From: Candidatus Zipacnadia bacterium
Lineage (GTDB): Bacteria > Armatimonadota > Zipacnadia > Zipacnadales > Zipacnadaceae
Assembly (NCBI GenBank): GCA_029820565.1
Contig: JALGUR010000003.1
Coordinates: forward strand, 67,304-131,303
DNA: 64,000 nt
Direction: 5' to 3'
Numbering within the stretch: the stretch's first letter is position 1; every line of letters begins with the position of its first letter. The position numbers and the translations under genes are program-made. Below the pieces are notes generated by a model that did no database searches, was not told the origin of the DNA, and saw only the letters and a list, made by a program, of their open reading frames with translations. Positions 3,211 through 16,246 of the stretch are shown here, piece after piece.

Positions 3211-4116
3211 ATGACTATGCGAACACATAAGGCGGTACTACTTGTGGCGGTGGTGGGGTTGGTGTTAGGGGCGTGCCGACCAGAAAGTCAGAAGCCAGCG
3301 AAACCGGCGCAGCCATCTGCGCAGATAAGCAATCAACAGCAACAGTTGATGGAGGAGATTCTGGGTTATCTGAAACAGAGCGGCAGTACTCTGGAGACTT
3401 TAGCGCGGGAAGTCCAGCGCCGTGAGACCTTGGAGCGAGTGCCCAGCGGGATAGAAAGATTGGGCACCGACGTGCGAGTAGCCAAGGCATTGGTGAGTGC
3501 GGCGCGCCGGGCAGCAACTGCCAAGTCCACCGAGAAAACCGCAGGGACTCTGGGTCGGTTGGGGCCGGTATTGGTGGGTCTGCGCAGTCAGATACCGGCC
3601 GCGCTAATCACTCAGCACCTGGAGCGAGCCCTGGTGGCCATTAGCACCTCTTCGGCGGAGGAAGCGGTTAATTTGGCTTCGGCTTACCTGCTGGGGGCAG
3701 TGGATGTGGCAATGAAAGCGCCGGCGCGACTGGTCCCTGACGTGATGAAGGATATCGAGAAAGCCAAGGCCCGTGTGGATGGCAACAACCTGACCAAGGG
3801 GGCCAACCAGATACTGACGATATTGGAGCGGCTGTCGGAGCACGAGAGCATCAGTCTGGTAGAGAAGGCTATCGGCGAGGGCCGTAGCGCCCAGGAGGCC
3901 GTAGCGCGGGAAGCCTGGCCGGTAGTTGCCGCCGAACTTGACCAACTTGACCGCCTACTGGCTGAACTTCAGGAGAAGATAGAAGGCGAAGTAACTGCAG
4001 TGGAGGCCGAAGAAGTGCCCGAGGCTGAGGAGGAAGAAATTACTCCCGAGCGAGTGGTACCGGAGGCCGAGGGGGCGATGGCCCCAATACCCGAGGCGGC
4101 TGCTCCTGCTGACTGA
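3211..4116 (+). CDS. Putative coiled-coil lipoprotein with acidic C-terminus
   Basis: ORF 3157..4116. Likely start is ATG 3211 or 3217 after GGGGAG. Lipobox LVLGAC. E/A-rich tail. Confidence 0.55.
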   Translation: MTMRTHKAVLLVAVVGLVLGACRPESQKPAKPAQPSAQISNQQQQLMEEILGYLKQSGSTLETLAREVQRRETLERVPSGIERLGTDVRVAKALVSAARRAATAKSTEKTAGTLGRLGPVLVGLRSQIPAALITQHLERALVAISTSSAEEAVNLASAYLLGAVDVAMKAPARLVPDVMKDIEKAKARVDGNNLTKGANQILTILERLSEHESISLVEKAIGEGRSAQEAVAREAWPVVAAELDQLDRLLAELQEKIEGEVTAVEAEEVPEAEEEEITPERVVPEAEGAMAPIPEAAAPAD

Positions 4117-4222
4117 TAAATATGGTCAACACACACAGTTGTCGGGGTAGTGGTCGGCACAAGGGCAATTGCAGTCTGCGGGCAAAGAGAAATAGCCTGA
4201 CGCCAGCCCGGTAGAATATATT

Positions 4223-4273
4223 GGGGCACCCTTCGGCAGGCTCAGGACAGAGAGGATGCCCCTCCCACAATAG
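4223..4273. repeat. REP-like element, family GGCACCCTTCGGCAGGCTCAGGACAG...GATGCCCCTCCCAC
   Basis: Near-identical cores at 32283..32332, 44799..44843 (opposite orientation) and 59703..59800. Confidence 0.6.
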
Positions 4274-4415
4274 TTGGTGAATCTGGTGCTGTAGGAGCGG
4301 CATCTCTGCCGCGAGGGACTTCGCTGGACGGATGCCTCTCTGACGATAGATTTTCGCAACAGGCTTAGCAGTCAAACCAACGAATTGCAGCAGTAGATAA
4401 GGAGTTCACCGATAG

Positions 4416-7400
4416 ATGCCAGCGCCGTTTGTCCATCTGCACGTCCACTCCGAATATAGTCTGTTAGACGGCGCTTGCCGTCTATCGCAGTTGGTAGAGC
4501 AGGTAGCCGGGTTGGATATGCCGGCGGTGGCCCTGACCGACCACGGGGTGATGTATGGGGCCATTGATTTCTACAAGCACTGCCGAGCCGCTGGGGTAAA
4601 GCCGATTATCGGCTGCGAGGTATATCTGGCCACGCGCACTCGTTTTGACCGCTCCACCGCTGAAGACCGGAATGCTTACCATCTGGTGCTGCTGGCTGAA
4701 AACCTCCAGGGGTATAAGAACCTGATGAAACTGGTCAGTGCCGCGCACCTGGAGGGCTTCTACTATCATCCCCGAGTGGACTTTGAACTCCTGGGCAACC
4801 ATAGCGAGGGTCTCATCGCCCTCAGCGGATGTCAGCAGGGCTTGATTGCCACTGATATACTCCAGGATAGATTGGCCGCGGCTCGCCAGCACTGTGAGTT
4901 GTTCAAGGAATTGTTCGGGCCGGACAATTTCTACCTGGAGTTGATGAACCACGGCCTGGCGGAGCAGCAGCGGGTAATTGCGGCCAAGTTGCGGCTGGCT
5001 GATGAACTTGACTTGCCCGTGGTGGCCACCAATGATGTCCACTACCTCAACCAGCAGGATGCTGAGGCCCACGATGTGCTGCTGTGCATCCAGACCCAGT
5101 CCACCTGCCAGCAGGCCAACCGATTGCGCTTCCCCGGCGACCAGTTCTATCTGAAGTCAGCGGGCCAGATGAACGAGGTGTTCGGCGAGATACCGGAGGC
5201 GCTGAGCAACACGCTGGAAATCGCTGACCGCTGCAATGTAGAGTTGGAGTTAGGCAATTTGATGCTACCCCATTTTGCCGTGCCCACGGGACACGACCTG
5301 AACAGTTATCTGCGGGAGTTGTGTGAGCAGAATATTGAGGTGCGCTATGGCTCACCGCGCCCCGAGGTAATTCAGCGACTGGATTATGAACTGGATGTCA
5401 TTGCCCAAACTAACTACGCAGGTTACTTTTTGATAGTGGCTGACTTCATACGAGAGGCCAAGGAGCGTGGTATCCTGGTCGGCCCAGGGCGTGGCTCAGC
5501 CACCGGTAGTATTGTGGCGTATCTGCTGGACATCAGCGAGATTGACCCGCTACGGTACGGGCTGATATTTGAGCGGATGCTCAACCCGGAGCGGGCCAGC
5601 CCGCCGGATATTGACTTGGACTTCCCCGATGACCGCCGGGAAGAGATCATTGAATATGTAAAGGAGAAGTATGGGCGGGAGCGGGTCGCACAGGTAGTTA
5701 CCTTCAATACGCTGGGGGCACGGGCGGCCATCCGTGATGTAGGCCGGGCTATGGAAGTTCCCTTGAAGAAAGTGGATACGCTGGCCAAGTTAGTGCCCTT
5801 TGGCCGGTCGCTTGACAATGCATTAAAGTTGGTTGCTGAGTTGGCTGAGGCGGTCCAGGAAGATGAGGAAACGGCCCGACTGCTGAGCACTGCCCAGAAT
5901 CTGGAGGGCCTGGCGCGACACGCCTCGGTGCACGCCGCCGCTGTGGTTATTGCTGATGCTCCGCTAACTGAGTATGTTCCCCTGCGCGGCGAGAAAGATG
6001 GCACGGTCACCACCCAGTACGCCATGGGGCCGATAGAGGACGTGGGACTGGTGAAGATGGATTTCTTGGGCCTTAAAACCCTTACCGTTATTCAGCGGAC
6101 TGTGGAGGCGGTGGCTGACAATCACGGGGTAGAAATTGACCTGCTCAACCTGCCCCGGGATGACCCCAAGACATACCAACTGCTGTGCGCAGGGGATACG
6201 GTGGCGGTATTTCAGTTGGAAAGTGAGGGGATGCGCAGCCTGCTGCGGCAGTTGCAACCGGAGCGGTTTGAGCACATAATCGCGGCCGTGGCCCTATATC
6301 GCCCCGGGCCGATGCAACATATTGACACCTACTGTGCCCGGCGTCACGGGGAGCCGGTGAAGTATCCGCACCCGGACCTGGAGCCAATTCTGGCCGAGAC
6401 CTATGGCATAATTACCTATCAAGAGCAAGTGATGGAGATTGCCTCGATCCTGGCCGAGTTCAGTATGCCTCAGGCGGAAGTGATTATGCGGGCTATGGGC
6501 AAGAAGGACCACGAGAAGATGGAGCAGATGAAGCCGCTATTTATGCAGGGGTGTGTTGATAACGACGTATCCCAAGGGACGGCCCGCGAAATCTACGCGC
6601 GGATGGAGAGTTTCGCCTCGTATGGCTTTAATAAATCTCACGCCGCGGCCTATGCCCTGGTGGCCTACTGGACGGCGTATCTGAAGGCCAACTATCCGGC
6701 GGAGTTTATGGCCGCCCATCTGTCCACGGTGATGGATAGCAGTGAGGATGTGGCTAAGGCGGTGACCGAATGTCGGCGGTTAGGGCTACAGGTGCGGCCG
6801 CCTTCGGTCAATCGCAGTCAAGCGCATTTCGCCGTAGAGGGCACTGAGATTCTATTTGGCTTGGCGGCTATCAAGAATTTGGGTACGCCTACCGCGGCGG
6901 CGATCGTGGGCGAGCGTGACAGTGACGGCCCCTACCTGGGCTTGGCTGATTTTTCTCGTCGGCTGCCCGCTGAGAAAGTATCTGTTGCTTCGGTCAAAGT
7001 GCTCATCCAGGTGGGAGCCTTTGACGAGTTTGGCCAGCGCAATAGTCTGCTGGCCGCGGCGGATAGTGTGTATGCGGCGGGCCAGAAATACCAGCAAGAC
7101 CAGGCCGTAGGGCAAAGTTCATTGTTCGGAGGCAGTCAGCCGGCCGCTGACCAGTGGCCCGAGCCGCCGCTGCCGGACGTGCCGGCTATGACCGAGGAGC
7201 AAGTACTGGGACTGGAGAAGGAACTGCTGGGCCTGTATCTGTCCAGCCACCCGCTGGTCAAGAACCAAGAGCGGGTAGAGCAGTGTACTACGGCGTCAAT
7301 TGAGGAGTTGACTGAATTCGCCGATGGCAGCCGAGTGGTGGTAGGCGGCGTCATCGCCGAAACCAAGCGCCACATTGACAAAAACGGCGACTTGATGATG

Positions 7401-8003
7401 TTCCTGACGCTGGAAGGGTTGGCCGAGCAGGTGGAAGTAACGGTGTTGGCCTCGGCCTACGAGACCTGCCAGGAGAATCTGGAAGAGGGTAACCTCGTGG
7501 TAATGGCGGCCCGCGTGGACCGGCAACTGTCCCGCTCGGGCAACGATGACGAGGTGAAACTCTTGGCTGACGACGTTGTACCGCTGGATGAAGCCCAACT
7601 GGTCTCGCCGCGGCAGAGAAAGCAAGCTGAGCAGGGTCGGCACGAGGAGGCGCGGGGATCCGCCGAACAAGCACCCCCACCTGCGGCCCCCCTCTCTATC
7701 CCCCCGCAAGCGGGGGGAGATAGGGGGGAAAGTCGGCGCACCGGCCCGGCGCCGGCCCCGCGCACGGTTATCATTGAATTGGACGGGCCCCAGACTGATG
7801 ACCACACGCTTGCTTCTCTGAAGGAGGTTATGCGTCGCTACCAGGGTCCACAGCCGGTAGTGCTGCGGTTTACCGGTAATGGCCAGCAGCGGCGGGTAGA
7901 CTTGGGCGAGAACTACACCGTCAACTGCAGCGAGGAATTCCCCATCCAGGTCCGCCGCCTGCCCGGAGTCCTTACGCTGTGGGAGGAAGAGACGGCGAAG
8001 TAA
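4416..8003 (+). CDS. dnaE: DNA polymerase III alpha subunit
   Basis: 1195 aa. PHP N-terminus (FVHLHVHSEYSLLDG), pol III alpha core motifs and an OB-fold region. AAGGAG SD upstream. Confidence 0.97.
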   Translation: MPAPFVHLHVHSEYSLLDGACRLSQLVEQVAGLDMPAVALTDHGVMYGAIDFYKHCRAAGVKPIIGCEVYLATRTRFDRSTAEDRNAYHLVLLAENLQGYKNLMKLVSAAHLEGFYYHPRVDFELLGNHSEGLIALSGCQQGLIATDILQDRLAAARQHCELFKELFGPDNFYLELMNHGLAEQQRVIAAKLRLADELDLPVVATNDVHYLNQQDAEAHDVLLCIQTQSTCQQANRLRFPGDQFYLKSAGQMNEVFGEIPEALSNTLEIADRCNVELELGNLMLPHFAVPTGHDLNSYLRELCEQNIEVRYGSPRPEVIQRLDYELDVIAQTNYAGYFLIVADFIREAKERGILVGPGRGSATGSIVAYLLDISEIDPLRYGLIFERMLNPERASPPDIDLDFPDDRREEIIEYVKEKYGRERVAQVVTFNTLGARAAIRDVGRAMEVPLKKVDTLAKLVPFGRSLDNALKLVAELAEAVQEDEETARLLSTAQNLEGLARHASVHAAAVVIADAPLTEYVPLRGEKDGTVTTQYAMGPIEDVGLVKMDFLGLKTLTVIQRTVEAVADNHGVEIDLLNLPRDDPKTYQLLCAGDTVAVFQLESEGMRSLLRQLQPERFEHIIAAVALYRPGPMQHIDTYCARRHGEPVKYPHPDLEPILAETYGIITYQEQVMEIASILAEFSMPQAEVIMRAMGKKDHEKMEQMKPLFMQGCVDNDVSQGTAREIYARMESFASYGFNKSHAAAYALVAYWTAYLKANYPAEFMAAHLSTVMDSSEDVAKAVTECRRLGLQVRPPSVNRSQAHFAVEGTEILFGLAAIKNLGTPTAAAIVGERDSDGPYLGLADFSRRLPAEKVSVASVKVLIQVGAFDEFGQRNSLLAAADSVYAAGQKYQQDQAVGQSSLFGGSQPAADQWPEPPLPDVPAMTEEQVLGLEKELLGLYLSSHPLVKNQERVEQCTTASIEELTEFADGSRVVVGGVIAETKRHIDKNGDLMMFLTLEGLAEQVEVTVLASAYETCQENLEEGNLVVMAARVDRQLSRSGNDDEVKLLADDVVPLDEAQLVSPRQRKQAEQGRHEEARGSAEQAPPPAAPLSIPPQAGGDRGESRRTGPAPAPRTVIIELDGPQTDDHTLASLKEVMRRYQGPQPVVLRFTGNGQQRRVDLGENYTVNCSEEFPIQVRRLPGVLTLWEEETAK
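7687..7728. repeat. Imperfect GC-rich palindrome inside the dnaE C-terminal linker
   Basis: CCCCCCTCTCTATCCCCCCG-caag-CGGGGGGAGATAGGGGGG. It encodes APLSIPPQAGGDRGES in frame. Confidence 0.55.
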
Positions 8004-8039
8004 TCAACAACCCAACGCTGAGAGAGGGAGCCGCTCACT

Positions 8040-8969
8040 ATGACGGAAGCCGACTTCGGCAGCAACCATATTAGCGTTGTAGAATCGCCGTGGGAAGCGA
8101 GATTCGTCTCGTTGGTGCGGTCCGTTGAAGAACAACTGATGATAGCTTCGCCATTTATCGCGCGCGGCGCCGTGGAGATTCTAACAAATGAATTGGGGAA
8201 GATGACTATCTCCAGGGATTTTCAACTAGTCCTTCTAGCCAATTTCAGCATCCCCAATTTAGCTAATGGCTCAGTTGACGCCGCCTCAATAGCTGACCTC
8301 ATGGCGTCAATACCGCATGTTCGTGTGCATCATCTACCGGGCCTGCATGCGAAAGCATACATAGCAGACCACCACACGGCGGTGGTCACGTCGGCGAATC
8401 TCACGATGGGTGGTTTGCGGAATAACGTCGAATACGGAGTCAAGATCAAACTTCAGCCTATCGTGCGCGCAATCAAGCAACACATGGAAAAATACGCAGA
8501 ACTGGGCGCCATATTGCCATTCGAGGAAGTGCGACGCTTCGGTTGTGCAGCCGCGGAACTCCGAGATTTGCGCAGGGAAGTAGAAGAATCTGGACGAAAG
8601 AGATTGCGGGAAGAACTGCAGCACCGGCTCGATGCAGCGAATCTACAGCTACTCCGGCGACGTGCTCACGAAGAGACTACGAATAGCATATTTGCGCCGA
8701 CCGTACTCTACATATTGCACGAAGGCCCTATGAAGACCGTGGATATAAATCGTAGAGTCCAGAGTATTCACCCTGATTTGTGTGACGATGCAATAGACAG
8801 AGTAATTGACGGCGTGCACTTTGGGAAAAAATGGAAGCACTACGTACGTAATGCCCAGCAGTATCTGAAACGCAACGGGCTTATTCGACGTGAAGGCAGG
8901 CATTGGATGTTGACGACTTTAGGCACACAAGAATTTGGTCTCATTATCTCTCGGGGAGAAAGTGTTTAA
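8040..8969 (+). CDS. PLD-family (single HKD) nuclease-like protein with C-terminal Mrr_N-like winged helix
   Basis: HKD motif HAKAYIADHHTAVVTSANLT (nt 8346-8405). Coiled-coil linker. The C-terminal segment (ILHEGPMKTVDINRRV...YLKRNGLIRREGRHWMLTTLG) resembles an Mrr N-terminal wHTH. GC is visibly lower than the flanks. Confidence 0.75.
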   Translation: MTEADFGSNHISVVESPWEARFVSLVRSVEEQLMIASPFIARGAVEILTNELGKMTISRDFQLVLLANFSIPNLANGSVDAASIADLMASIPHVRVHHLPGLHAKAYIADHHTAVVTSANLTMGGLRNNVEYGVKIKLQPIVRAIKQHMEKYAELGAILPFEEVRRFGCAAAELRDLRREVEESGRKRLREELQHRLDAANLQLLRRRAHEETTNSIFAPTVLYILHEGPMKTVDINRRVQSIHPDLCDDAIDRVIDGVHFGKKWKHYVRNAQQYLKRNGLIRREGRHWMLTTLGTQEFGLIISRGESV

Positions 8970-9025
8970 TTGGACATCGATTAGAAGATGCAAAAGGTCA
9001 GGTCAGACTGCTGGGAGGATCGCAA

Positions 9026-9409
9026 ATGGTCTACCTCAACTGCGCCAAAGATGCGCTGTGGTTAGTAGAGGTTACTGCAAACTACGACCTGTCAAATAGG
9101 GATAGAGATCTGATAGCAGAAATTGCGAGCGAAGAGGCCCGAAAGTCAAGAGGAGCCTACTCCTTTATTGTCCATGGCATTGTAGAAAGCAACACGAGTT
9201 CTACGCTCCTCGTGGAAGCCTGCCAGACGGCACTCAATAACCTACTATTGGTACTCTCCGATAATCTCGCCTATGATATCAGTTGGACTCGCTACGATAA
9301 AGAGAAATGGCAGGTGTTTCACGCCGCTGACGGAAGCCCGCGGCGGGCTAAGGTTTTGATAGATTTAGAGCAGATAGATGAAGAATTGCAGTATTATATC
9401 GAATTCTGA
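9026..9409 (+). CDS. Hypothetical 127-aa partner of the PLD-wHTH gene
   Basis: ORF 8903..9409. ATG 9026 lies 6 nt after GGGAGGA. No recognisable family. Same low-GC block. Confidence 0.5.
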   Translation: MVYLNCAKDALWLVEVTANYDLSNRDRDLIAEIASEEARKSRGAYSFIVHGIVESNTSSTLLVEACQTALNNLLLVLSDNLAYDISWTRYDKEKWQVFHAADGSPRRAKVLIDLEQIDEELQYYIEF

Positions 9410-9465
9410 GGGGGAACGCATAGGCCACAATAGTTATGTAGATTGCTATTAGTGGGGGAGGGCTT

Positions 9466-10785
9466 ATGGCTAATATTATTGACATAATTGATGCTCGGGA
9501 CGATGGCGGTTCGGCACTGCAGGCGCTGCGCGAGCGGTCGGTGGTTGAAGTGGCGGGGGAAATTGAACAGGATGTGCGCCGCATAGTGGAGGATGTGCGG
9601 GCGCGGGGCGATGCGGCCTTGATTGAGTATGAGCAGCAGTTTGACTGCCCTACTTTGACCGCCGAGCGACTGCAGGTGACGGATGAGGAGATTCAGGCCG
9701 CCTATCAACAGGTCTCTGATAAGCAATTAGGGGCGCTGCGCCGGGCCAAAAACAATGTCTACGAGTTTCACCTGCGCGCTCGGCCCGCCTCGTGGCTGGA
9801 CAATTTTGAAGGCGTATGGTTGGGCCAGCGGATAACCCCGATTGAGTCGGTCGGCATCTACGTGCCGGCGAGAAGCGCCCCGCTGCCCTCCACGGTGTAT
9901 ATGTGTGCTATGCCGGCGCAAGTAGCCGGTGTGGAGCGTCTGGTGATATGCACACCACCGCGCCGGGACGGCTCGGTGGACCCGCTGACCCTACTGGCCG
10001 CGGCCGAGTGTGACGTGGATGAGATATATCGGGCCGGTGGGGCCCAGGCGATTGCGGCGCTGGCCTTTGGCACGGAAAGCATCGCAGCGGTCAATAAAAT
10101 CGTCGGTCCGGGCAATCCCTGGGTGACCCTGGCCAAAAAGTATGTTTTCGGCGTGGTGGGGATTGACTCGTTAGCCGGCCCCAGCGAGATCCTGGTCATT
10201 GCGGATGAGACTGCCCAGCCGGCCCTGGTGGCCGCTGACCTGCTGGCTCAAGCCGAGCACACCGGGGATAATACAGTGGTGCTGCTCACTGATGCCGAAA
10301 GTCTGGCTGAGGAAGTGGGCGAAGAGTTGAGCAGGCAGATTCAGACTTTGGACCGGGGCGAACTGATGCGCCAGTCACTGAACGAATATGGGGCGATTGT
10401 GTTAGTGCGGGATCTGCACCACGCGGCCCAGTTAGCCACTGAGATTGCCCCCGAACATCTGCAACTTATGGTAGCCGACCCCTTTGCCCTGCTGGCGGAA
10501 GTAGACAACGCCGGTTGCATCTGTCTGGGGCCGCTGTCGGCCGTGGCATTGGGCGATTATGCCGCTGGGCCCAGCCATGTCCTGCCCACTATGGGCACGG
10601 CGCGTTTTTCTTCGGGGCTGTCCGTGGATGATTTTGTGAAAAAATCCTCATTGATTTATGCTACCCCACCGGGCCTGCGGCGCGTAGCGGATGACGCTGT
10701 TGAACTGGCCGAGGCCGAGGGCCTCTCCGCGCACGCCCAGGCCATCCGGCGCCGGCAAAGTGATGATACAACGACTTGCAGGTAG
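9466..10785 (+). CDS. hisD: Histidinol dehydrogenase
   Basis: 439 aa with typical HisD motifs (GPGNPWVTLAKK, AGPSEILVIADE, QAEH). Confidence 0.95.
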   Translation: MANIIDIIDARDDGGSALQALRERSVVEVAGEIEQDVRRIVEDVRARGDAALIEYEQQFDCPTLTAERLQVTDEEIQAAYQQVSDKQLGALRRAKNNVYEFHLRARPASWLDNFEGVWLGQRITPIESVGIYVPARSAPLPSTVYMCAMPAQVAGVERLVICTPPRRDGSVDPLTLLAAAECDVDEIYRAGGAQAIAALAFGTESIAAVNKIVGPGNPWVTLAKKYVFGVVGIDSLAGPSEILVIADETAQPALVAADLLAQAEHTGDNTVVLLTDAESLAEEVGEELSRQIQTLDRGELMRQSLNEYGAIVLVRDLHHAAQLATEIAPEHLQLMVADPFALLAEVDNAGCICLGPLSAVALGDYAAGPSHVLPTMGTARFSSGLSVDDFVKKSSLIYATPPGLRRVADDAVELAEAEGLSAHAQAIRRRQSDDTTTCR

Positions 10786-10885
10786 GCGGCCCATCGTTTA
10801 TAATCTCACTATTGGAGACTGTTGCCAGAGGTAATTGAGGAACGGTAGAGTAAGTTGTGGAAGTTGAGGCCGTAGCGCGGTACTC

Positions 10886-10920
10886 ATATCGGGGCAGAGA
10901 TGCCCCTCCTACAAGTTGTT
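10886..10920. repeat. REP-like hairpin ATATCGGGGCAGAGATGCCCCTCCTAC
   Basis: Near-identical to 60787..60815. Stem GGGGCA/TGCCCC. Lies in the hisD-hisB intergenic region. Confidence 0.6.
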
Positions 10921-10983
10921 GCAACAGTCAATGCCGCTGCCAGTCTGTCCCCATCTCAGCAGTACCCAAGTAGGTGAGGCTAA

Positions 10984-11574
10984 ATGTCACTGCGAACTGC
11001 CCAACTATCACGCGAGACTGCGGAAACTAACATCGAAGTGCAGATCAACCTGGACGGCTCCGGTGAAGGTGAGATAGACACCGGGGTGGGCTTTTTTGAC
11101 CATATGCTCTCGCAACTCGCCAAGCACGGCCGCTTTGACCTGAATATAGAGGCACGGGGAGACCTGGAGGTTGACGCCCATCATACGGTGGAAGATGTAG
11201 GGATAATCCTCGGTCAAGCCCTCAAGGAAGCAGTCGGGGATAAGCAGGGAATGGTACGCTTCGGGGCGGCCAGTTGCCCGATGGATGAGGCGCTGGTGGC
11301 GGCGGCGATTGATTTTGGCGGCCGCGGGCACCTGGAATATGGGCTGAAACTGCCTGTGGCGAACGTCGGCGATTTTGACACCGAATTAGTCCGCGAATTC
11401 TTCATAGCGGTGGCCCACAACGCCGGTATGAGCCTTCACCTGACCCAGCAGGCCGGCATCAATACGCACCACATAATTGAGTCGGCCTTCAAATCCTTCG
11501 CCCGCGCTCTGGATGAGGCGACCAGATTGGACGAGAGGATTAGTGGGGTGCCGTCCACGAAGGGCCAACTGTAA
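10984..11574 (+). CDS. hisB: Imidazoleglycerol-phosphate dehydratase
   Basis: 196 aa. RETAETNIEVQINLDG and GFFDHML motifs. Confidence 0.95.
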   Translation: MSLRTAQLSRETAETNIEVQINLDGSGEGEIDTGVGFFDHMLSQLAKHGRFDLNIEARGDLEVDAHHTVEDVGIILGQALKEAVGDKQGMVRFGAASCPMDEALVAAAIDFGGRGHLEYGLKLPVANVGDFDTELVREFFIAVAHNAGMSLHLTQQAGINTHHIIESAFKSFARALDEATRLDERISGVPSTKGQL

Positions 11575-11649
11575 AGGGCGCTGCCATCCTGAGATTGTGG
11601 GAAGTGGCTGATATAAGGTAGTCCTCCCCCGTGTTATAGGTGGTTAGTT

Positions 11650-12261
11650 GTGATTGCACTGATTGACTATGGAATGGGCAATTTGGGCAGTGTGGATAAG
11701 GCACTGCGGCGGGTCGGCGGCGAGGTGCAGATGACCAGTGACCCGCAGGTCATCAGCCAGGCGGCGGGCGTAGTGCTGCCGGGCGTGGGGGCCTTTGACG
11801 ACTGTATGGACGGCCTCCACAAGCGTGGGCTGGCCGAGGCGTTGCGCCAGATTATCCGGGCCGGCAAACCGTTCCTGGGCATCTGCCTGGGCCTGCAAGT
11901 GCTGTTTGACCGTAGTGAAGAAGGCGAGAACGAAGGGTTGGGGATTATTCCCGGCGAAGTGGTGCGCTTCAAGCATAATCTGAAGATACCGCAGATTGGC
12001 TGGAACCAAATCAATGTCCGAAGCCAGGCACCACACCTGGCAGGAATCAAAGACGGGGTGTGGGTCTACTTCGTCCACTCCTACTACGTGGTGCCTGAGG
12101 ATGAGTCAGTGATCGCTACGACTACCGACTACGGCTACGAATTCTGCTCGTCAATCTGGCGCGAGAATATCTTCGCCTGCCAGTTCCACCCCGAAAAAAG
12201 CCAGGACGTAGGGCTGAAGATACTGGAGAACTTCACGCAGTTTCTTGGGCAGACGCATTAG
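11650..12261 (+). CDS. hisH: Imidazole glycerol phosphate synthase, glutaminase subunit
   Basis: GTG start. IALIDYGMGNLGSV, GICLGLQ (catalytic Cys) and FHPEKS motifs. Confidence 0.95.
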   Translation: MIALIDYGMGNLGSVDKALRRVGGEVQMTSDPQVISQAAGVVLPGVGAFDDCMDGLHKRGLAEALRQIIRAGKPFLGICLGLQVLFDRSEEGENEGLGIIPGEVVRFKHNLKIPQIGWNQINVRSQAPHLAGIKDGVWVYFVHSYYVVPEDESVIATTTDYGYEFCSSIWRENIFACQFHPEKSQDVGLKILENFTQFLGQTH

Positions 12262-12288
12262 CCCTACTTTCGAGGAGGCCCGGTAGTT

Positions 12289-13896
12289 ATGCAGATAAGA
12301 AACTTGATTAAGTCAGTGGGTGAGGCCGAAGTCCGCCACATCCTGGAGGCACTCTGTGAGGGGCGGTATCGGTTCCACGCCGGCGTCAGTCTTTCGCAGA
12401 TATTTGATCCTGAGGAGCCTGGGTGGACGAAAGAGGAGAAGCGCATGATCTTCCTGAGCAATGTCGACTGGCTGGTTACGGATGACTCGCCTGAGGAGAA
12501 GCCGTTGTTGGCGATAGAGGTAGACGGCCCCCATCACAAGGAGGGTGAACAGCAGCGGAAAGACCGAACGAAAGATGCCATATTCGCTAAGGCGGGACTG
12601 CCTTTGTTACGACACACTACTGAGCAGGTGGGGACCAAAGTAACAGAGCGAGAGATCCGAAGATGGGTTCTAATGCACTTCTGGCTACCTCCGGTCCTTG
12701 AGGCAAGCGACGATCTTGCGGTAGACCTGAAGAACCTATCCCTAGCGTTGGCCGGTGCCCTATCTGACGAGGTCCTCGAGTTTCTCAGAGTCAGAGAAAG
12801 GTTCAATAGCCTCTTTTGGCCGGACGTCTTTGCCGATGAAATACGCAGCGACCAAGCCATGGACAGGGTGCGTGAACTTGCGTCTTTCGCCTCAAAATAC
12901 ACGTTCCCGGATATACCTACACCGGAAGAGACACTTCGGGCGGACCGCGTAGTGAAAGAGATTGCTCTGCAGTTCCCAGATGGCACGACGTTCCGTAGCG
13001 CGGCACAATGTTTGAACACTGAGAGCCTGTACCCTAATTGGGTTGCCTTCCAGCGCGGAGCTATTGATGTCATGAGCCACGCCATCGAAGCATACGAGGA
13101 CGGTTCCTTTCGCCCCGATCCAACGGCGGAGTTTCCTCCTGAGTCTGACGAAGCAACGGAATATGACATCTGGCGGGACTTTTCCGTAGACTGGCGCCGG
13201 TCGGTGGAAGACTTTACCTACCAAAGACTCCGCTCAATACGCCAAGACCTCGAAGGGCGACGCAACGAGGTGTGGCCCGTCTCGTCGAAGCGCGAGTTCT
13301 TTTACCCACCTGTTGCTGGACTCCAGTGCGCCCACCGATATTGTTTCCAAACAACGGATGCGCCAGAGCAACGAGTCGTTTACGGAGTTGCAGAGGTATT
13401 TCGGGACGATGTGCGACAGAAAGGCGCCGCTTCGCAGCTTCAGCTCGCCCGTGACGTTGCGAAATACGACGCGCTGGTTCAGATACTTGACCTGGTGAAT
13501 CCAGAGGTGGATGTACGCACGACTATCGCGCCGGATATCGCCGTACGCGAGAGCGACACTGAGACTGACCGGCAGCGGAAAGCGCGCCATATTTCCGGCT
13601 CGGACTACGACTTGGTGACGATCACCAGCGAAATCAAGCTTACCAACCCCAAGCAGGAACAGATTCGGCTCATCGCCACCCAGAAGGTGGAAGGTGAGGT
13701 GACTGAGGCCAGCGATGAGGCCAAGTTCAGCAAGTTGAGCGAGGAAAGCTTCGGCCTTAATCCCACCAGCCGGATCAAGTGGGATGTGAAGCTATCTGGT
13801 GGCGAGGAAAAGAGCTTGACCTATACCTACCAGGTTTATGTGAAAGACAACTCTGCTGGCAAACCACAAAGGCATGATAATAATCCCTGCGATTGA
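12289..13896 (+). CDS. 535-aa protein: DUF2726-like (PD-(D/E)xK-type) N-terminal domain plus large uncharacterised C-terminal region
   Basis: N-terminus has the pattern SVGEAEV...VSLSQIF...NVDWLVTD...[11 protein letters not shown]...[19 protein letters not shown]. This matches DUF2726 as I recall it. GAGGAGG SD upstream. The stop overlaps the hisA start by 23 nt. Confidence 0.7.
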
Positions 13897-14599
13897 CCTA
13901 TCTGAGGGCCAGGTGGTGCGGTTGCGGCAGGGGGATATGCGGCAAAAGACCGTGTATTCCGATGACCCTGCGGCGCAGGCGCAACTATGGGAACAGCAAG
14001 GGGCCGAAGTTATCCACATTGTGGACCTGGATGGGGCGATAAGTGGCTACCCGGCTAATCTGGATGGTGTGGAAAACATTGTGGAAAACGTGGGAGTTCC
14101 TGTGGAAATGGGCGGCGGGCTGCGGACTGCCGATGACGTGGCACAAGTACTGGCGATAGGAGTGCGCTGGGCCATAATGGGGACGGCGGCCCTGCGTGAC
14201 CGGCCTGAGTTGGAGGAGGCATTGGACCGGTTCGGCGAACGGATTATTGTCGGCATTGACGCCCGCGACGGCAAAGTAACCGTAGAAGGGTGGACCGAAG
14301 GCAGCGAGATAGATGCGGTCTTCCTGGCGCGGCAGATGGAAGAATTGGGCGTGGAGCGGCTCATCTGCACCGATATTGCCACTGATGGGATGCTGCAAGG
14401 CCCTAACCTGGCGGCGATGCGGACCCTGGCCGAGGCAGTGCAGATCCCCATTATCGCCTCCGGCGGGGTGAGCACTACCCAGGACATCCGCGCGTTGCGG
14501 GAGCTGGAACCGTTAGGGGTAATTGGCTGCATCATCGGACGGGCGCTCTATGACGGGACACTGTCTTTAGGTGAGGCGCTGGCCGCCGCTTCACAGTAG
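13874..14599 (+). CDS. hisA: ProFAR isomerase
   Basis: [22 protein letters not shown]-terminus and typical (beta/alpha)8 HisA motifs. Confidence 0.95.
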
Positions 14600-14613: not shown

Positions 14614-14642
14614 TTGACATCTGAGGGAGGGCAATGTATAAT
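14614..14642 (+). promoter_or_regulatory. Consensus sigma70 promoter of the TA cassette
   Basis: TTGACA at 14614-14619, 17 nt, TATAAT at 14637-14642. Lies just after the hisA stop. ATG 14653 is 11 nt downstream of the -10, so the leader would be near-leaderless. Confidence 0.7.
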
Positions 14643-14652
14643 ATAGGAACGT

Positions 14653-15006
14653 ATGGGAGATAAAGCAATGGAAACGAGGGCAAGGATCAGTGACAAGCGG
14701 TGGCTCAGTCCCCCAGAGGCGGCGGAGTACCTGGGGATAGCAGTGAGCACCTTGTACCGGTGGCGCACGGAGGGGCGCATACGATTTTATCAATTCGGGG
14801 AACGCGTGAGCCGGATTAAGCGCGATGAACTGGATGGCCTGGCGCGACCTCAGCCCTCTGAGGGTACGGCGGCTCTGCAGGAATGGCAGCAGCAAGCCGA
14901 GACGCTTTTTCGCGAACTATATGAGCAATATGGTGTTGGCGACGATTCTGCCGAGGTCATCCGTGAAGCCCGTGAGCAGCGCTCTCGGCAACTGGGCGGG
15001 CGATAG
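14653..15006 (+). CDS. Excisionase/MerR-type HTH protein, putative antitoxin
   Basis: WLSPPEAAEYLGIAVSTLYRWRTEGRIRFYQFG is an HTH_17-like motif. An alternative start is ATG 14668 after GGGAGA. The gene ends 4 nt before the PIN gene. Confidence 0.75.
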   Translation: MGDKAMETRARISDKRWLSPPEAAEYLGIAVSTLYRWRTEGRIRFYQFGERVSRIKRDELDGLARPQPSEGTAALQEWQQQAETLFRELYEQYGVGDDSAEVIREAREQRSRQLGGR

Positions 15007-15009
15007 CGC

Positions 15010-15456
15010 ATGGCGGAGCGCATCTGTCTGGACGCCAGTGTGGCCGCCAAATGGGTCTTTCCGGAGGTCCACTCCGAAGAGGCGAGGGAAATCCAGACGG
15101 ATGTAGCCGATGGGCGCACCCAGATAGTAGTGCCGGACAGTTTCTTTATTGAATGCGTCAGTGTGGTCTATCATAAACATCAGCAGAGCCTGGCCGATAT
15201 GGAGCAGGCCCAGGCGGCCCTCGGTGTACTGCGGCAGGTCCCGGCCAACGTGACGGCGATCCGCGACGTCTCTCACCAGACCATGACCCTGGCCGAACGT
15301 CTAAACATCACTGTCTGGGACGCTGCCTATCTGGCTGTCGCTGAACATCACAACTGCGACTTGTGGACCGCCGATAAAAAACTTGCCCGGCAGACACAAC
15401 CGCACTTTGATTGGGTGAAGCTGCTGGGCACTGATGAATGGACTGAAGCGAGGTGA
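15010..15456 (+). CDS. vapC: PIN-domain ribonuclease toxin (VapC-like)
   Basis: Carries the typical acidic residues (ICLDASV..., [22 protein letters not shown]). 148 aa. Tightly coupled to the upstream HTH gene. Confidence 0.85.
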
Positions 15457-15463
15457 CGTTATT

Positions 15464-16246
15464 ATGTTAGCCAAGGTGGACGAAGGTCGCGTGGTTAAAG
15501 GTATAAAGTATGTGGACCATGTGGACGCCGGCGACCCGGTGGAGCAGGCCCAAGAATATGACCGCCAGGGGGCCGATGAACTGGTCTTTCTGGACATCAC
15601 CGCCTCTGTGGAAGGGCGGGAGATAGTGCTGGATATGGTCAGGCGGGCGGCGGAGTGTATCTTTATACCGCTGACCGTCGGGGGAGGTATCCGGACTGTT
15701 GAGGATATTCGCCAGGTTCTTAAGGCGGGCGCGGACAAGGTCTCTATGATGACGGCAGCGGTGCAGAATCGGGACCTGGTCAATGAGGCAGCAGGGCGCT
15801 TTGGCAACCAGTGCATTGTGGTCGCTATTGACGCCCAGCGTGTGCCGCGCGAGGGACGGGATGACTCGGATTTGGGGTATGCTCCCGACGAAGAGATTGA
15901 ATGGAAAGTATGGACGCACGGGGGGCATAAACCTACTGAGGTCGACGCACTGCAATGGGCCGGGGAGGCGGCCGCGCGTGGGGCGGGGGAGTTGCTGGTT
16001 ACCTCAATGGATGCCGATGGAACCAGGGCGGGCTATGATATAGAACTGCTGCGGCGCATCTCGCAAGAAGTGAGCATTCCGGTCATTGCCTCGGGGGGCG
16101 CGGGTAACATTGACCATATGTATGAGGCGCTCACCGCCGGCCAGGCGGATGCGGTGTTAGCGGCCAGCATCTTCCATTTCCGCCAATACACCGTCGGGCA
16201 GGTCAAAGAAGAATTGGCTGAGCGGGGCATTACCGTGCGCCGGTAG
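15464..16246 (+). CDS. hisF: Imidazole glycerol phosphate synthase cyclase subunit, atypical N-terminus
   Basis: ATG 15464 lies 8 nt after GAGGTGA. The protein is HisF-like throughout ([30 protein letters not shown]). It starts [13 protein letters not shown] and lacks the canonical RIIPCLD segment. Confidence 0.88.

Follow-up and report, generated by a model that had tools for sequence, protein, structure and literature searches.

In the histidine operon of a Candidatus Zipacnadia bacterium, the hisH–hisA junction is occupied by a 535-codon gene, hereafter X, a name that covers the whole mosaic described below. On balance, we take X to be a real, selected, lineage-restricted accessory gene of the his operon in a small clade related to Candidatus Zipacnadia (Armatimonadota), and a mosaic of three parts: a nuclease-fold domain, an orphan fast-evolving segment, and a fragment captured in frame from the 3′ end of a DUF4139-like gene. 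Judging from the sequence, X most likely encodes a DUF2726/Vsr-like DNA endonuclease that is co-transcribed with the his genes and whose 3′ end carries the site of hisA translation initiation. If this reading is right, X represents a clearly dated bacterial domain accretion by in-frame gene-fragment capture, with two orthologues as the "before" state and the donor family identified. It is an example of gene-fragment capture and reveals no new class of system.

Anatomy of the gene at the hisH–hisA junction

The window, i.e., the whole 64,000-nucleotide stretch under analysis, carries X at 12289–13896 on the forward strand, as do all the features listed here. Its upstream neighbour is hisH (11650–12261), the glutamine amidotransferase subunit, 79% identical to the hisH of the related locus L001, which bears a Pfam GATase domain. 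The ATG of X at 12289 is preceded by a GAGGAGG Shine–Dalgarno sequence (12272–12278) that ends 10 nt 5′ of it. Residues 1–117 (12289–12639) form the DUF2726 nuclease domain (Vsr/DUF559-like PD-(D/E)xK), residues 118–402 (12640–13494) the orphan segment, and residues 403–519 (13495–13845) the captured fragment, after which the ancestral 3′ end of X, including the stop codon, resumes (13846–13896, as aligned with the end of the L001 orthologue) and holds the start of hisA (13874–14599), 23 nt inside X. Thus, both a long reading frame with its own strong Shine–Dalgarno sequence between hisH and hisA and the overlap of its last 23 nt (13874–13896) with the hisA start, as claimed in the original prediction, are found as described. 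Public collections contain a protein identical to X (P0051) and a variant that differs at 2 residues (P0001).

The N-terminal DUF2726 domain

The N-terminal ~110 residues had been ascribed to DUF2726, and the Pfam profile PF10881 indeed matches residues 12–117 well above its threshold (E = 1.9e-13; 50.7 bits against a cut-off of 24.7; profile positions 9–116 of 126). When aligned with six DUF2726 proteins from plasmids, both X and its L001 orthologue P0002 retain the residues conserved in the family (D60, P72, E77-x-D79, H82/H83, D92, K95, G103, and R108). The domain is 81% identical between X and L001, with pN of 0.114 and pS saturated at 0.79 (pN/pS ~0.14). Weak Pfam matches to DUF559 (E = 0.0057) and MTES_1575 (E = 0.001) were also recorded. 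According to PMC3424549, no DUF2726 member has a characterised activity, and X offers a compact, conserved, stand-alone representative of the family.

The AF2 model of residues 1–130 (pLDDT 82, pTM 0.78) contains helices at 12–23, 48–56, and 86–102 and strands at 28–34, 58–64, 72–78, and 106–109, i.e., an alpha-beta-alpha-beta-beta-alpha-beta topology, for which the reference is the restriction-endonuclease-like fold with its alpha-beta-beta-beta-alpha-beta core. The Foldseek search of BFVD with the domain ranks a "Restriction enzyme" and DUF2726 proteins of phages highest (E = 1.6e-3, probability 1.0), Vsr and DUF559 being also on the list. The PDB list is led by TnsA, EcoRI, BsaXI, AgeI, and DrdV, which are mostly PD-(D/E)xK enzymes, none of them significant (the best, TnsA, has E = 0.32). 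The proposed profile and structure checks therefore bore out the DUF2726 similarity through Pfam, with support from BFVD, but gave no significant PDB match for the N-domain. A homologue search with residues 1–130 alone returned nothing and missed even the near-identical P0001, which is ascribed to a word-index limit.

The orphan middle segment

No Pfam match at E ≤ 10 was obtained for the middle segment (residues ~118–402), and an exhaustive HMMER search over 1.84 billion representative proteins found it only in P0001, P0005, and P0002, plus one spurious repeat protein. Both orthologues occupy the same hisH–hisA site. The segment of X is 26% (tblastn) to 33% (MAFFT) identical to that of L001 and 56% identical to that of L088, diverging about five times faster than the nuclease domain. 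Its dN/dS is 0.27–0.34 (0.34 against L088), compared with 0.08–0.16 for the his genes, and its GC3 is 0.586 vs. 0.67–0.74 in the neighbouring genes. By these substitution ratios, the middle segment is under purifying selection on average. AF2 gives it a pLDDT of ~30, with low-confidence helices and two beta-beta-alpha units; a usable model of the segment was thus not obtained, and a regulatory or specificity-related role for it is conjectural. A duplicated dsRBD-like module was considered for these units and rejected, because hhalign assigns the two beta-beta-alpha blocks a probability of 0.15% and there is no Pfam match at E ≤ 10. The original view that the ~420 residues after the nuclease domain hold no nameable motif is right for residues ~118–402 and wrong for residues 403–519, whose homologues are the C-terminal ends of DUF4139-like proteins. 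Accordingly, this part of X is not one novel domain with a sensory or regulatory function: it consists of a fast-diverging orphan segment and a captured fragment absent from both orthologues.

The properties of the middle segment might suggest that X is the decaying relic of an old insertion, a functionless protein whose frame stays open only for ribosomes to reach the hisA start. The low identity to L001 in the face of 73–85% for the neighbouring genes, the deviating GC3, the toleration of a 117-codon foreign insertion, and the lack of a confident model all point this way. We nevertheless think this unlikely, for over the same divergence the N-domain has retained 81% identity, a pN/pS of ~0.14, and every family-conserved residue, and the dN/dS of the middle segment is well below 1, while a frame kept open for coupling only would not conserve amino acids.

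The reading of X as a selected accessory gene has also to be weighed against a role in defence. X would then be a stand-alone anti-phage nuclease, its fast-evolving C-terminal part a sensor shaped by diversifying selection, and the his operon a small "defence island". DUF2726 has been described in fusions with presumed defence modules such as AbiJ-NTD3 (PMC3710099) and in the vicinity of mobile elements (PMC3424549). This operon has been a repeated landing site for conflict-type genes (an HTH_17–PIN pair and a PLD/DrmC-like gene), the middle segment diverges rapidly, and both differences between X and its sister strain are non-synonymous. However, the dN/dS values indicate purifying rather than diversifying selection on average, and part of the supposed sensor is a recent fragment insertion missing in the orthologues. 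The search of PADLOC-DB 2.0 gave no system match; its only hit, to DpdF, covers 44 residues in the nuclease core (E = 0.0026, 13.5 bits). There are no partner genes, the neighbours being his genes, and PHROG and phage tblastn searches are negative. X thus matches no known defence system, and the defence explanation seems to us rather doubtful. Neither was a type II toxin–antitoxin arrangement found: X is a single gene directly flanked by hisH and hisA.

The captured DUF4139-like tail

Residues 403–519 of X are 72–75% identical to the last 117 residues of the DUF4139-like proteins P0003, P0007, P0008, P0009, and P0010 (tblastn, BLASTP), one alignment showing 74% identity over 117 aa with a BLASTP E-value of 2e-53. 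These proteins align with X at residues 403–519 only, and in tblastn of P0003 and P0004 against the window, 13495–13845 alone matches; unambiguous homology extends from ~13507 (VDVRTT) to 13842 (VYV). The homology is defined by pairwise alignments: the PF13598 profile does not match X or the isolated tail at E ≤ 10, and P0003 itself falls below its cut-off (27.7 vs. 31.8 bits). The full-length DUF4139/MuiA-like architecture, i.e., a signal peptide and a ~580-aa body, is not present in X, which has the last 117 residues only. AF2 predicts seven strands over residues 418–519, in keeping with the beta-sandwich look noted earlier for the last ~100 residues; the pLDDT, as 10-residue block means, is 63–85 over 421–480 and 491–520 and 45 for 481–490. 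A Foldseek search of the whole protein against PDB produced weak beta-sandwich matches only, e.g., to CBM3 and ApaG, and phmmer of X against PDB sequences produced nothing.

Neither orthologue has the tail. P0002 (422 aa) matches X over residues 1–404 and then passes directly into the hisA-overlapping end, while P0005, at L088, aligns with residues 275–403 and is directly followed by hisA. At the left junction, TGGATGT is common to the window and the L088-type end, and the DUF4139 genes read GTGGACGTG there. At the right junction, the window has GTG directly followed by AAAGACAA, as against GGGAAAGACAAAG in L001; the 3′ end of X aligns with the end of the L001 gene, ...GKDKDTGDNNPRH and stop (AAAGACAA...GATAATAATCCC). 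The converse order of events, in which X was inserted into a DUF4139 gene already lying between hisH and hisA, was rejected, because both orthologues lack the tail and the ancestral 3′ end of X resumes after the fragment. DUF4139-like genes, moreover, sit in unrelated contexts, e.g., RtcB–DUF4139–metallophosphatase, which counts against a pre-existing copy at this junction.

The genome has a full-length DUF4139-like gene of its own (P0009, which probably shares a contig with P0051, since both list a longest contig of 155,790 bp). Recent copying from this gene was rejected as the source of the tail, as P0009 is 72% identical to the tail and 86% identical to P0003. The dS between the tail and P0003/P0008 is 0.84–0.92, against 0.45 between P0003 and P0008, with dN/dS constant. 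From these identities and this gap in dS it follows that the tail either came from a copy that was more divergent or was captured long ago. The dN/dS of the tail against three family members is 0.16–0.19, and the tail bears neither a stop codon nor a frameshift. Altered family-invariant positions number 3 of 36 in X (G447S, H454P, and R465Q) and 0–1 in other members. The tail may be a neutral passenger, too young for decay.

Distribution and residence in the his operon

X has been found in only three lineages and at one locus (1.84 billion representative proteins and a metagenome scan); for further family members, the metagenome scan re-found the L002 contig and nothing else. At L001, where housekeeping proteins are 73–85% identical to those of the window, the order is dnaE–hisD–hisB–hisH–X–hisA–HTH–PIN–hisF–hisI. 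All three close lineages have X, which is missing only where the hisA of the relatives is at most 71% identical, the site being rearranged there. In these more distant relatives, hisH and hisA adjoin or have other genes between them, and the nearest genomes without X (L006 and L007) carry other genes at the site. The comparison of his operons suggested in the original prediction thus identifies X as variably present, that is, accessory, and not universally conserved at hisH–hisA. No flanking or terminal repeats were found around X, and phage tblastn and PHROG searches with X gave no match. X does not appear to be mobile now: it was found at one locus only, and the amino-acid divergence of its nuclease domain is about that of the host genes.

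Two other genes or gene pairs were observed in the same operon. The HTH_17–PIN pair between hisA and hisF in the window forms a module distinct from X and is served by a consensus promoter of its own. Between dnaE and hisD lies a strain-specific PLD/DrmC-like gene, one end of which resembles Mrr_N.

Overlap with hisA

The start of hisA is placed at the ATG at 13874 because the conserved N-terminus MIIIPAIDL begins there; the same N-terminus is found at L001 (with a GTG start) and at L088. In all three lineages with X, hisA initiation lies inside the 3′ end of X. The Shine–Dalgarno sequence of hisA is weak or absent in the window and L001, while at L088 it is good (GGGAGGGG) and the overlap is only 4 nt, so the dependence on coupling is not uniform. 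No terminator-like sites were found flanking X, two weak ones lying inside it (one per strand), and the scanned region contains 5 such sites, fewer than the 6.6 expected from shuffles. No promoter of X's own was detected, and no notable promoter separates X from the his genes. The hisF of the window appears to lack 7 codons, including that of the catalytic Asp, through a 21-nt deletion at 15475/15476; if real, this loss would weaken the premise of an essential operon in this strain. As to the suggestion of a selfish element that has made itself hard to lose, the hisA start inside the 3′ end of X fits it without proving it; X does not appear to be mobile now.

The zero-diversity tract

Three strain haplotypes (the window, L086, and L087) show no differences over 1464 nt (12445–13908) in surroundings that are ~3% divergent. 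With 80 differences in 9466–12444, ~39 would be expected in the tract and none was seen (Poisson P about 8e-18). The right end of the tract differs between L086 and L087. The X genes of the window and of its sister strain differ at two positions only, both non-synonymous (E49A and R52D). The haplotypes co-occur and were assembled from the metagenomes of sibling samples; the same pattern could therefore be produced by contigs that mix strains, by ordinary homologous recombination, or by a sweep.

The tract could be read as a recent homing footprint, with X as a free-standing homing endonuclease or gene-conversion drive that cuts X-less hisH–hisA junctions or alleles and spreads by co-conversion. 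The Vsr/DUF559/DUF2726 group does include a homing endonuclease of a group I intron (PDB 3r3p; PMC3424549), the weak fold matches include 3r3p and a phage "Group I intron protein", X is placed between two conserved genes, the spacers being minimal, and the tract combines zero differences with ~3% divergent flanks and a right end that is not the same in L086 and L087. Such a drive is nonetheless improbable in our estimation. One site in three lineages, a divergence of X at least as large as in the host genes, and saturated pS speak for long vertical residence; no empty site was seen among close relatives, and the nearest genomes without X, L006 and L007, have other genes there; and, given the sibling-sample origin of the haplotypes, chimeric contigs, recombination, or a sweep could have left the tract.

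A bolder version has only a slim chance of being correct, namely that X is an "addictive" nuclease embedded in the operon, and that its newest allele acquired a folded beta-sandwich domain from the end of a foreign or paralogous DUF4139-like gene and was recently carried through the co-existing strains, either by gene conversion or in a gene-specific sweep. If true, the tract would mark a process at hisH–hisA, homing-like or positively selected, that is still active, and X would be a chromosomal bacterial analogue of phage free-standing homing endonucleases, caught in the act of accreting a domain.

Proposed explanation

The explanation we favour, that of a selected, lineage-restricted accessory gene, can be put as follows. 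The X protein would be a DNA endonuclease, co-transcribed with the his genes, whose variable middle, and now also the beta-sandwich tail, may modulate target choice or partner binding. Translation of hisA would depend on ribosomes translating X, given the weak or absent Shine–Dalgarno sequence of hisA in the window and L001 and its GTG start in L001. Under such dependence, clean loss of X and insertions with early stops would be selected against, which would account for a captured fragment that keeps the frame and has no stop codon. In this lineage only, X carries an in-frame insertion of ~112–117 codons derived from the 3′ end of a gene for a DUF4139-like secreted protein, the copy ending one or two codons before the donor stop and sitting just upstream of the ancestral last 17 codons of X; the fragment was probably brought in by illegitimate recombination of the microhomology type. 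Overlapping the start of a biosynthetic gene downstream would thus constrain which insertions survive, namely in-frame and stop-free ones, and an accessory nuclease-fold gene would persist through its interlock with hisA.

Comparison with known systems

The nuclease-fold domain is common to X and the DUF2726 proteins of plasmids and phages, e.g., a 279-aa protein of an Enterobacter IncC plasmid (WP_308982249.1) and an 890-aa Variovorax protein, with 30–36% identity and the shared pattern VD...P...iEvD..yH...D..K...G.pllR. However, DUF2726 is C-terminal in the six plasmid proteins examined, while in X it is N-terminal and followed by the orphan segment. Unlike the plasmid and phage genes, X is chromosomal, lies in a biosynthetic operon, and appears to be translationally interlocked with hisA.

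Vsr, DUF559 proteins, and I-Bth0305I (PDB 3r3p) belong to the same PD-(D/E)xK structural group as DUF2726 (PMC3424549), but none of them gives a significant sequence or structure match with X (for 3r3p, E = 3.2). In contrast to Vsr and I-Bth0305I, X has no cytosine methyltransferase alongside, no intron context, and 400 extra residues.

In the DUF4139-like (PF13598, MuiA-like) secreted proteins, e.g., P0003 and P0009, the last 117 residues are the homologue of the X tail, with the same predicted beta-sandwich. X lacks their signal peptide and first ~460 residues, and the tail is now part of a presumably cytoplasmic protein with a nuclease domain.

Finally, other cassettes are found at his junctions: the HTH_17–PIN pair of the window, a RelE/HigB-like and XRE pair in Thermoguttaceae (L068 and L072), and a DNA methyltransferase (L082). 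Like X, they have landed at junctions that flank hisA and consist of small conflict- or addiction-type genes. Those of Thermoguttaceae and L082 are on the opposite strand and the HTH–PIN pair has its own consensus promoter, whereas X lies on the operon strand, has no detected promoter of its own, and overlaps the start of hisA.

Overlap of X with hisA

Gene X, a mosaic of 535 codons, and hisA are interlocked. The open reading frame originally predicted between hisH and hisA is real: it runs from an ATG at 12289 to 13896 on the plus strand, encodes 535 aa, and is preceded by a Shine–Dalgarno sequence, GAGGAGG, read at 12272–12278 (plus strand), while hisH ends upstream at 12261. The 23-nt overlap claimed for the two genes is confirmed as well. 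The hisA start is at 13874, inside X, and not further downstream, because the conserved N-terminus MIIIPAIDL begins at this ATG; in other HisA enzymes, this stretch bears the catalytic Asp. Sequence comparison reveals the same arrangement of the hisA start in related loci. The Shine–Dalgarno sequence of hisA is weak or absent in the window and in L001, a locus with an X orthologue where hisA starts with GTG; on L088, a contig with another orthologue, it is good.

A site scan of the region found neither a terminator-like nor a strong promoter-like site between X and the his genes, which suggests that X is co-transcribed with them. Ribosomes translating X may be needed, at least partly, for initiation on hisA, and loss of X as well as stop-bearing insertions would then be penalised because of this dependence.

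Mosaic structure of X

X is a three-part mosaic of an N-terminal DUF2726 domain (N-domain, residues 1–117), an orphan middle segment (about 118–402), and a DUF4139-like tail (403–519); the large novel sensor domain proposed earlier does not hold, its region consisting of the orphan segment and a piece captured from another gene. Among 5.8 billion clustered proteins, only four matched X: P0001, a variant with two different residues; P0002, a 422-aa DUF2726 protein with 41% identity over 76% of X; and P0003 and P0004 (about 580 aa), which match only the last 22% of X with 74% and 66% identity, respectively. In pairwise alignments, residues 1–405 of P0002 correspond to residues 1–404 of X, and the last 117 residues of P0003 align gap-free with residues 403–519 (BLASTP E = 2e-53). 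Both P0003 and P0004 have signal peptides and are assigned to DUF4139 in precomputed Pfam data, P0003 falling just under the Pfam cut-off (27.7 vs. 31.8 bits). X as a whole protein is not a member of DUF4139, and no full-length DUF4139-like copy was found in the window, where P0003 and P0004 have tblastn matches at 13495–13845 only.

Beyond the tail fragment, X resumes with a 17-codon end, which overlaps hisA and aligns at the DNA level with the 3' end of the P0002 gene, GKDKDTGDNNPRH. Short strings are shared at both tail junctions. At the left one, TGGATGT is common to the window and L088, and the DUF4139 genes read GTGGACGTG there; at the right one, the window has GTG followed across the junction by AAAGACAA vs. 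GGGAAAGACAAAG in L001. The copied piece ends one or two codons before the donor stop (...VYVRV stop or ...VYVR stop). That the fragment is in frame and ends just short of this stop would follow from the proposed dependence of hisA on X translation. A search for flanking repeats and other hallmarks of mobile elements was negative.

In the AF2 model of full-length X, built on a six-sequence alignment, block-mean pLDDT is 70–86 over residues 31–80, and pLDDT is about 30 over residues 111–410. The tail is modelled as a seven-strand beta-sandwich with block means of 63–85, except for one block of 45, and a Foldseek comparison of full-length X with the PDB gave weak beta-sandwich matches only. The variable C-terminal part may affect targeting or partner binding. 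X is a neat example of how a gene fragment can be captured and a gene interlocked with an operon.

Orthologues and phylogenetic distribution

The gene for P0002 occurs in L001, L002, and L003, where the order dnaE-hisD-hisB-hisH-X-hisA-HTH_17-PIN-hisF-hisI-TPR is the same as in the window and the housekeeping proteins are 73–85% identical to those of the window. An exhaustive HMMER search of 1.84 billion representative proteins with X residues 118–404 matched P0001, P0002, and a fragment named P0005 that is 56% identical; the sole further match was a spurious one to a eukaryote-like repeat protein. P0005 lies on the 577-nt contig L088 and ends with ...ILDLLDEESLDVGGDAT, after which hisA follows at once with an ATGA overlap. 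X is therefore present in three lineages, always between hisH and hisA, and since two of the three lack the DUF4139-like tail, the tail is by parsimony a derived insertion in the lineage of the window.

The his loci of relatives were collected by a HisA scan with one genome per species, the nearest ones belonging to MAGs labelled Candidatus Zipacnadum/Zipacnadia and Armatimonadota. Three of these loci (L009, L010, and L014) have hisH adjoining hisA without X. In L006, hisB and hisA are separated by genes for an FkbM-type methyltransferase and a TPR protein (4028–5938), with no hisH there, and in L007 a ParE-like toxin gene immediately precedes hisA (5629–5958). The his operon is thus also interrupted in L006 and L007, the closest relatives without X; in L007, two URO-D-like genes and a sulfatase gene lie between hisA and hisF (7251–11295). 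In 39 of 80 distant loci, hisH precedes hisA on the same strand, with a gap of at most 300 nt in 31 and a larger one in 8 of the 39. The larger gaps carry unrelated cargo: a RelE/HigB-like and XRE-antitoxin pair, a DNA methyltransferase, a secreted protein, or an LRR protein. The pair (a 105-aa RelE/HigB-like ORF and a 157-aa XRE-type HTH ORF) is on the minus, opposite strand in two Thermoguttaceae MAGs (L068, 2697–3511; L072, 5173–5990), and the methyltransferase-like gene with an SPPY motif is on the minus strand in a Pirellulales MAG (L082, 4096–5481), all named by eye.

As relatives lack X or hold other genes at this place, X is an accessory gene restricted to one clade, and the hisH-hisA junction is a recurrent landing site. 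The original interpretation is supported in part: the accessory nature of X stands, in view of its absence from more distant relatives. X does not belong to any defence system catalogued in PADLOC; its biological role may be defence, repair, or purely selfish.

Origin of the tail

The tail is 72–75% identical to the best of the 46 DUF4139-like family members recovered with P0003 as a query. P0051, which is identical to X, and the full-length DUF4139-like P0009 probably reside on one contig, since both list a longest contig of 155,790 bp. P0009 is 72% identical to the tail and 86% identical to P0003. Substitution rates over the tail were computed with DNA of three family members: dS is 0.84 for X and P0003, 0.92 for X and P0008, and 0.45 for P0003 and P0008, with a constant dN/dS of 0.16–0.19. 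A recent copy of the resident P0009 gene is ruled out because of the 72% identity and the dS of 0.84–0.92. Either the source of the tail was a copy that is more divergent, in another organism or a paralogue since lost, or the capture is old and the tail has been kept under purifying selection within X. Of 36 positions that are invariant in 23 family members, three are changed in the tail (G447S, H454P, and R465Q), where most members have changed 0–1, and this points to at most a mild relaxation of constraint.

A frameshift divides the resident full-length DUF4139-like gene of a sibling sample into ORFs of 445 and 124 aa (P0055 and P0056, P0009 cluster). The 124-aa piece begins 10 residues before the start of the X tail homology, which is probably a coincidence.

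Strain variation and selection

Contigs L086 and L087 from two sibling samples are 98–99% identical to the window. They differ from it at 80 of 2979 positions over hisD-hisH (49 synonymous and 17 non-synonymous codons) and at 11–18 positions per 300 nt in the HTH-PIN pair, and have no differences at all over 12445–13908, where about 39 are expected (P ~ 8e-18; 4e-7 at a 1% background). Near-identity extends to about 14149 in L087 and 14792 in L086. Within X, no more than two codons are changed, both non-synonymously and both where the tract begins on its left side (E49A and R52D). The tract fits a recent recombination or sweep of the tail-bearing allele through the strain mixture. The same signature could also arise from chimeric metagenome contigs, and we therefore regard it as a lead, not as an established result.

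As judged by pN and dN/dS, the N-domain of X is under strong constraint and the middle segment under weak constraint. Between the window and L001, the N-domain has 81% amino acid identity and a pN of 0.114, similar to the 0.08–0.14 of the his genes (pS saturated, 0.79), and the middle segment has 33% (MAFFT) or 26% (tblastn) identity, a pN of 0.465, and a pS of 0.77. Between the window and L088, which is closer than L001, dN/dS is 0.34 over the 129 codons that close the middle segment and 0.04 for the adjacent hisA codons.

For the same genome pair (window and L001), pS of X over 12289–13500 (0.77–0.79, saturated) exceeds that of the flanking his genes (0.46–0.62), and GC3 of the middle segment is 0.586 vs. 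0.67–0.74 in its neighbours; either an earlier split of the alleles or a weaker constraint on codons could account for both.

Other features of the his region

A toxin–antitoxin-like pair, HTH_17 (14653–15006) and PIN (15010–15456), lies between hisA and hisF, as it does in L001. It is directly preceded by a perfect sigma-70 consensus promoter, TTGACA-17-TATAAT (12/12, 14614–14642), whereas no strong promoter-like site lies between X and the his genes.

hisF actually starts with the ATG at 15464 (region 15464–15500), which is preceded by GAGGTGA, and not with the ORF-finder ATG at 15434. HisF of the window begins with MLAK joined directly to VDEGRVVKG, so that the seven residues RIIPCLD, present in L001, L007, L009, L010, and L014 (MLAKRIIPCLDV..GRVVKG), are absent. 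In other HisF enzymes, these residues make up strand beta-1, which bears the catalytic Asp. The deletion junction coincides exactly with the end of contig L086 (...ATGTTAGCCAAG). Either 21 nt have really been lost in frame, which probably inactivates HisF, or the assembly is at fault.

Between dnaE and hisD, the window has a strain-specific insertion of 1.45 kb (8001–9454) with a low GC of 0.46–0.50, which L086, L087, and L001 lack. One product is a 309-aa protein of the PLD family (PLDc_2, E = 8e-10) with an Mrr_N-like C-terminus, which is DrmC-like in PADLOC and NCBIfam below the cut-off; an overlapping 168-aa ORF had no matches. The dnaE-hisD junction has three alleles: the PLD insertion in the window, a longer dnaE end in L086 (about 7130–7180), and a deletion in L087 (about 7125–7200), called as a 1643-aa in-frame DnaE-HisD fusion that may be an assembly artefact. 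In hisA of L001, a segment of about 100 nt (9456–9558) repeats residues 116–133 and splits the gene call, with only a 116-aa product called; either hisA is disrupted in L001 or the segment is an assembly artefact.

The DUF2726 domain

X belongs to DUF2726 both by profile and by motif, and the recognition of its N-terminus as a putative nuclease fold in the original prediction stands. Residues 12–117 match the Pfam family PF10881 (E = 1.9e-13, 50.7 bits vs. a cut-off of 24.7), with sub-threshold matches to the related families MTES_1575 and DUF559. When X is aligned with six DUF2726 proteins from plasmids, the conserved residues D60, E77-x-D79, H82/H83, D92, K95, and R108 are seen to be intact. 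The N-domain modelled alone (pLDDT 82, pTM 0.78) alternates helices and strands as expected. A structure search found no significant match among solved structures, the non-significant list being headed by PD-(D/E)xK enzymes (TnsA, the best, E = 0.32; I-Bth0305I, E = 3.2). Among predicted viral structures, the N-domain best matches a “Restriction enzyme” and phage DUF2726 proteins (E = 1.6e-3, probability 1.0); Vsr, DUF559, and a group I intron protein come next.

The X product is probably a DNA endonuclease of the Vsr/DUF559/DUF2726 type. These three families have been placed in one group by Steczkiewicz et al. (PMC3424549), who list the function of DUF2726 as unknown and find it often near mobile elements. 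The domain has also been described in a fusion with AbiJ-NTD3 (Anantharaman et al., PMC3710099). In the six plasmid proteins DUF2726 is C-terminal, whereas in X it occupies the N-terminus.
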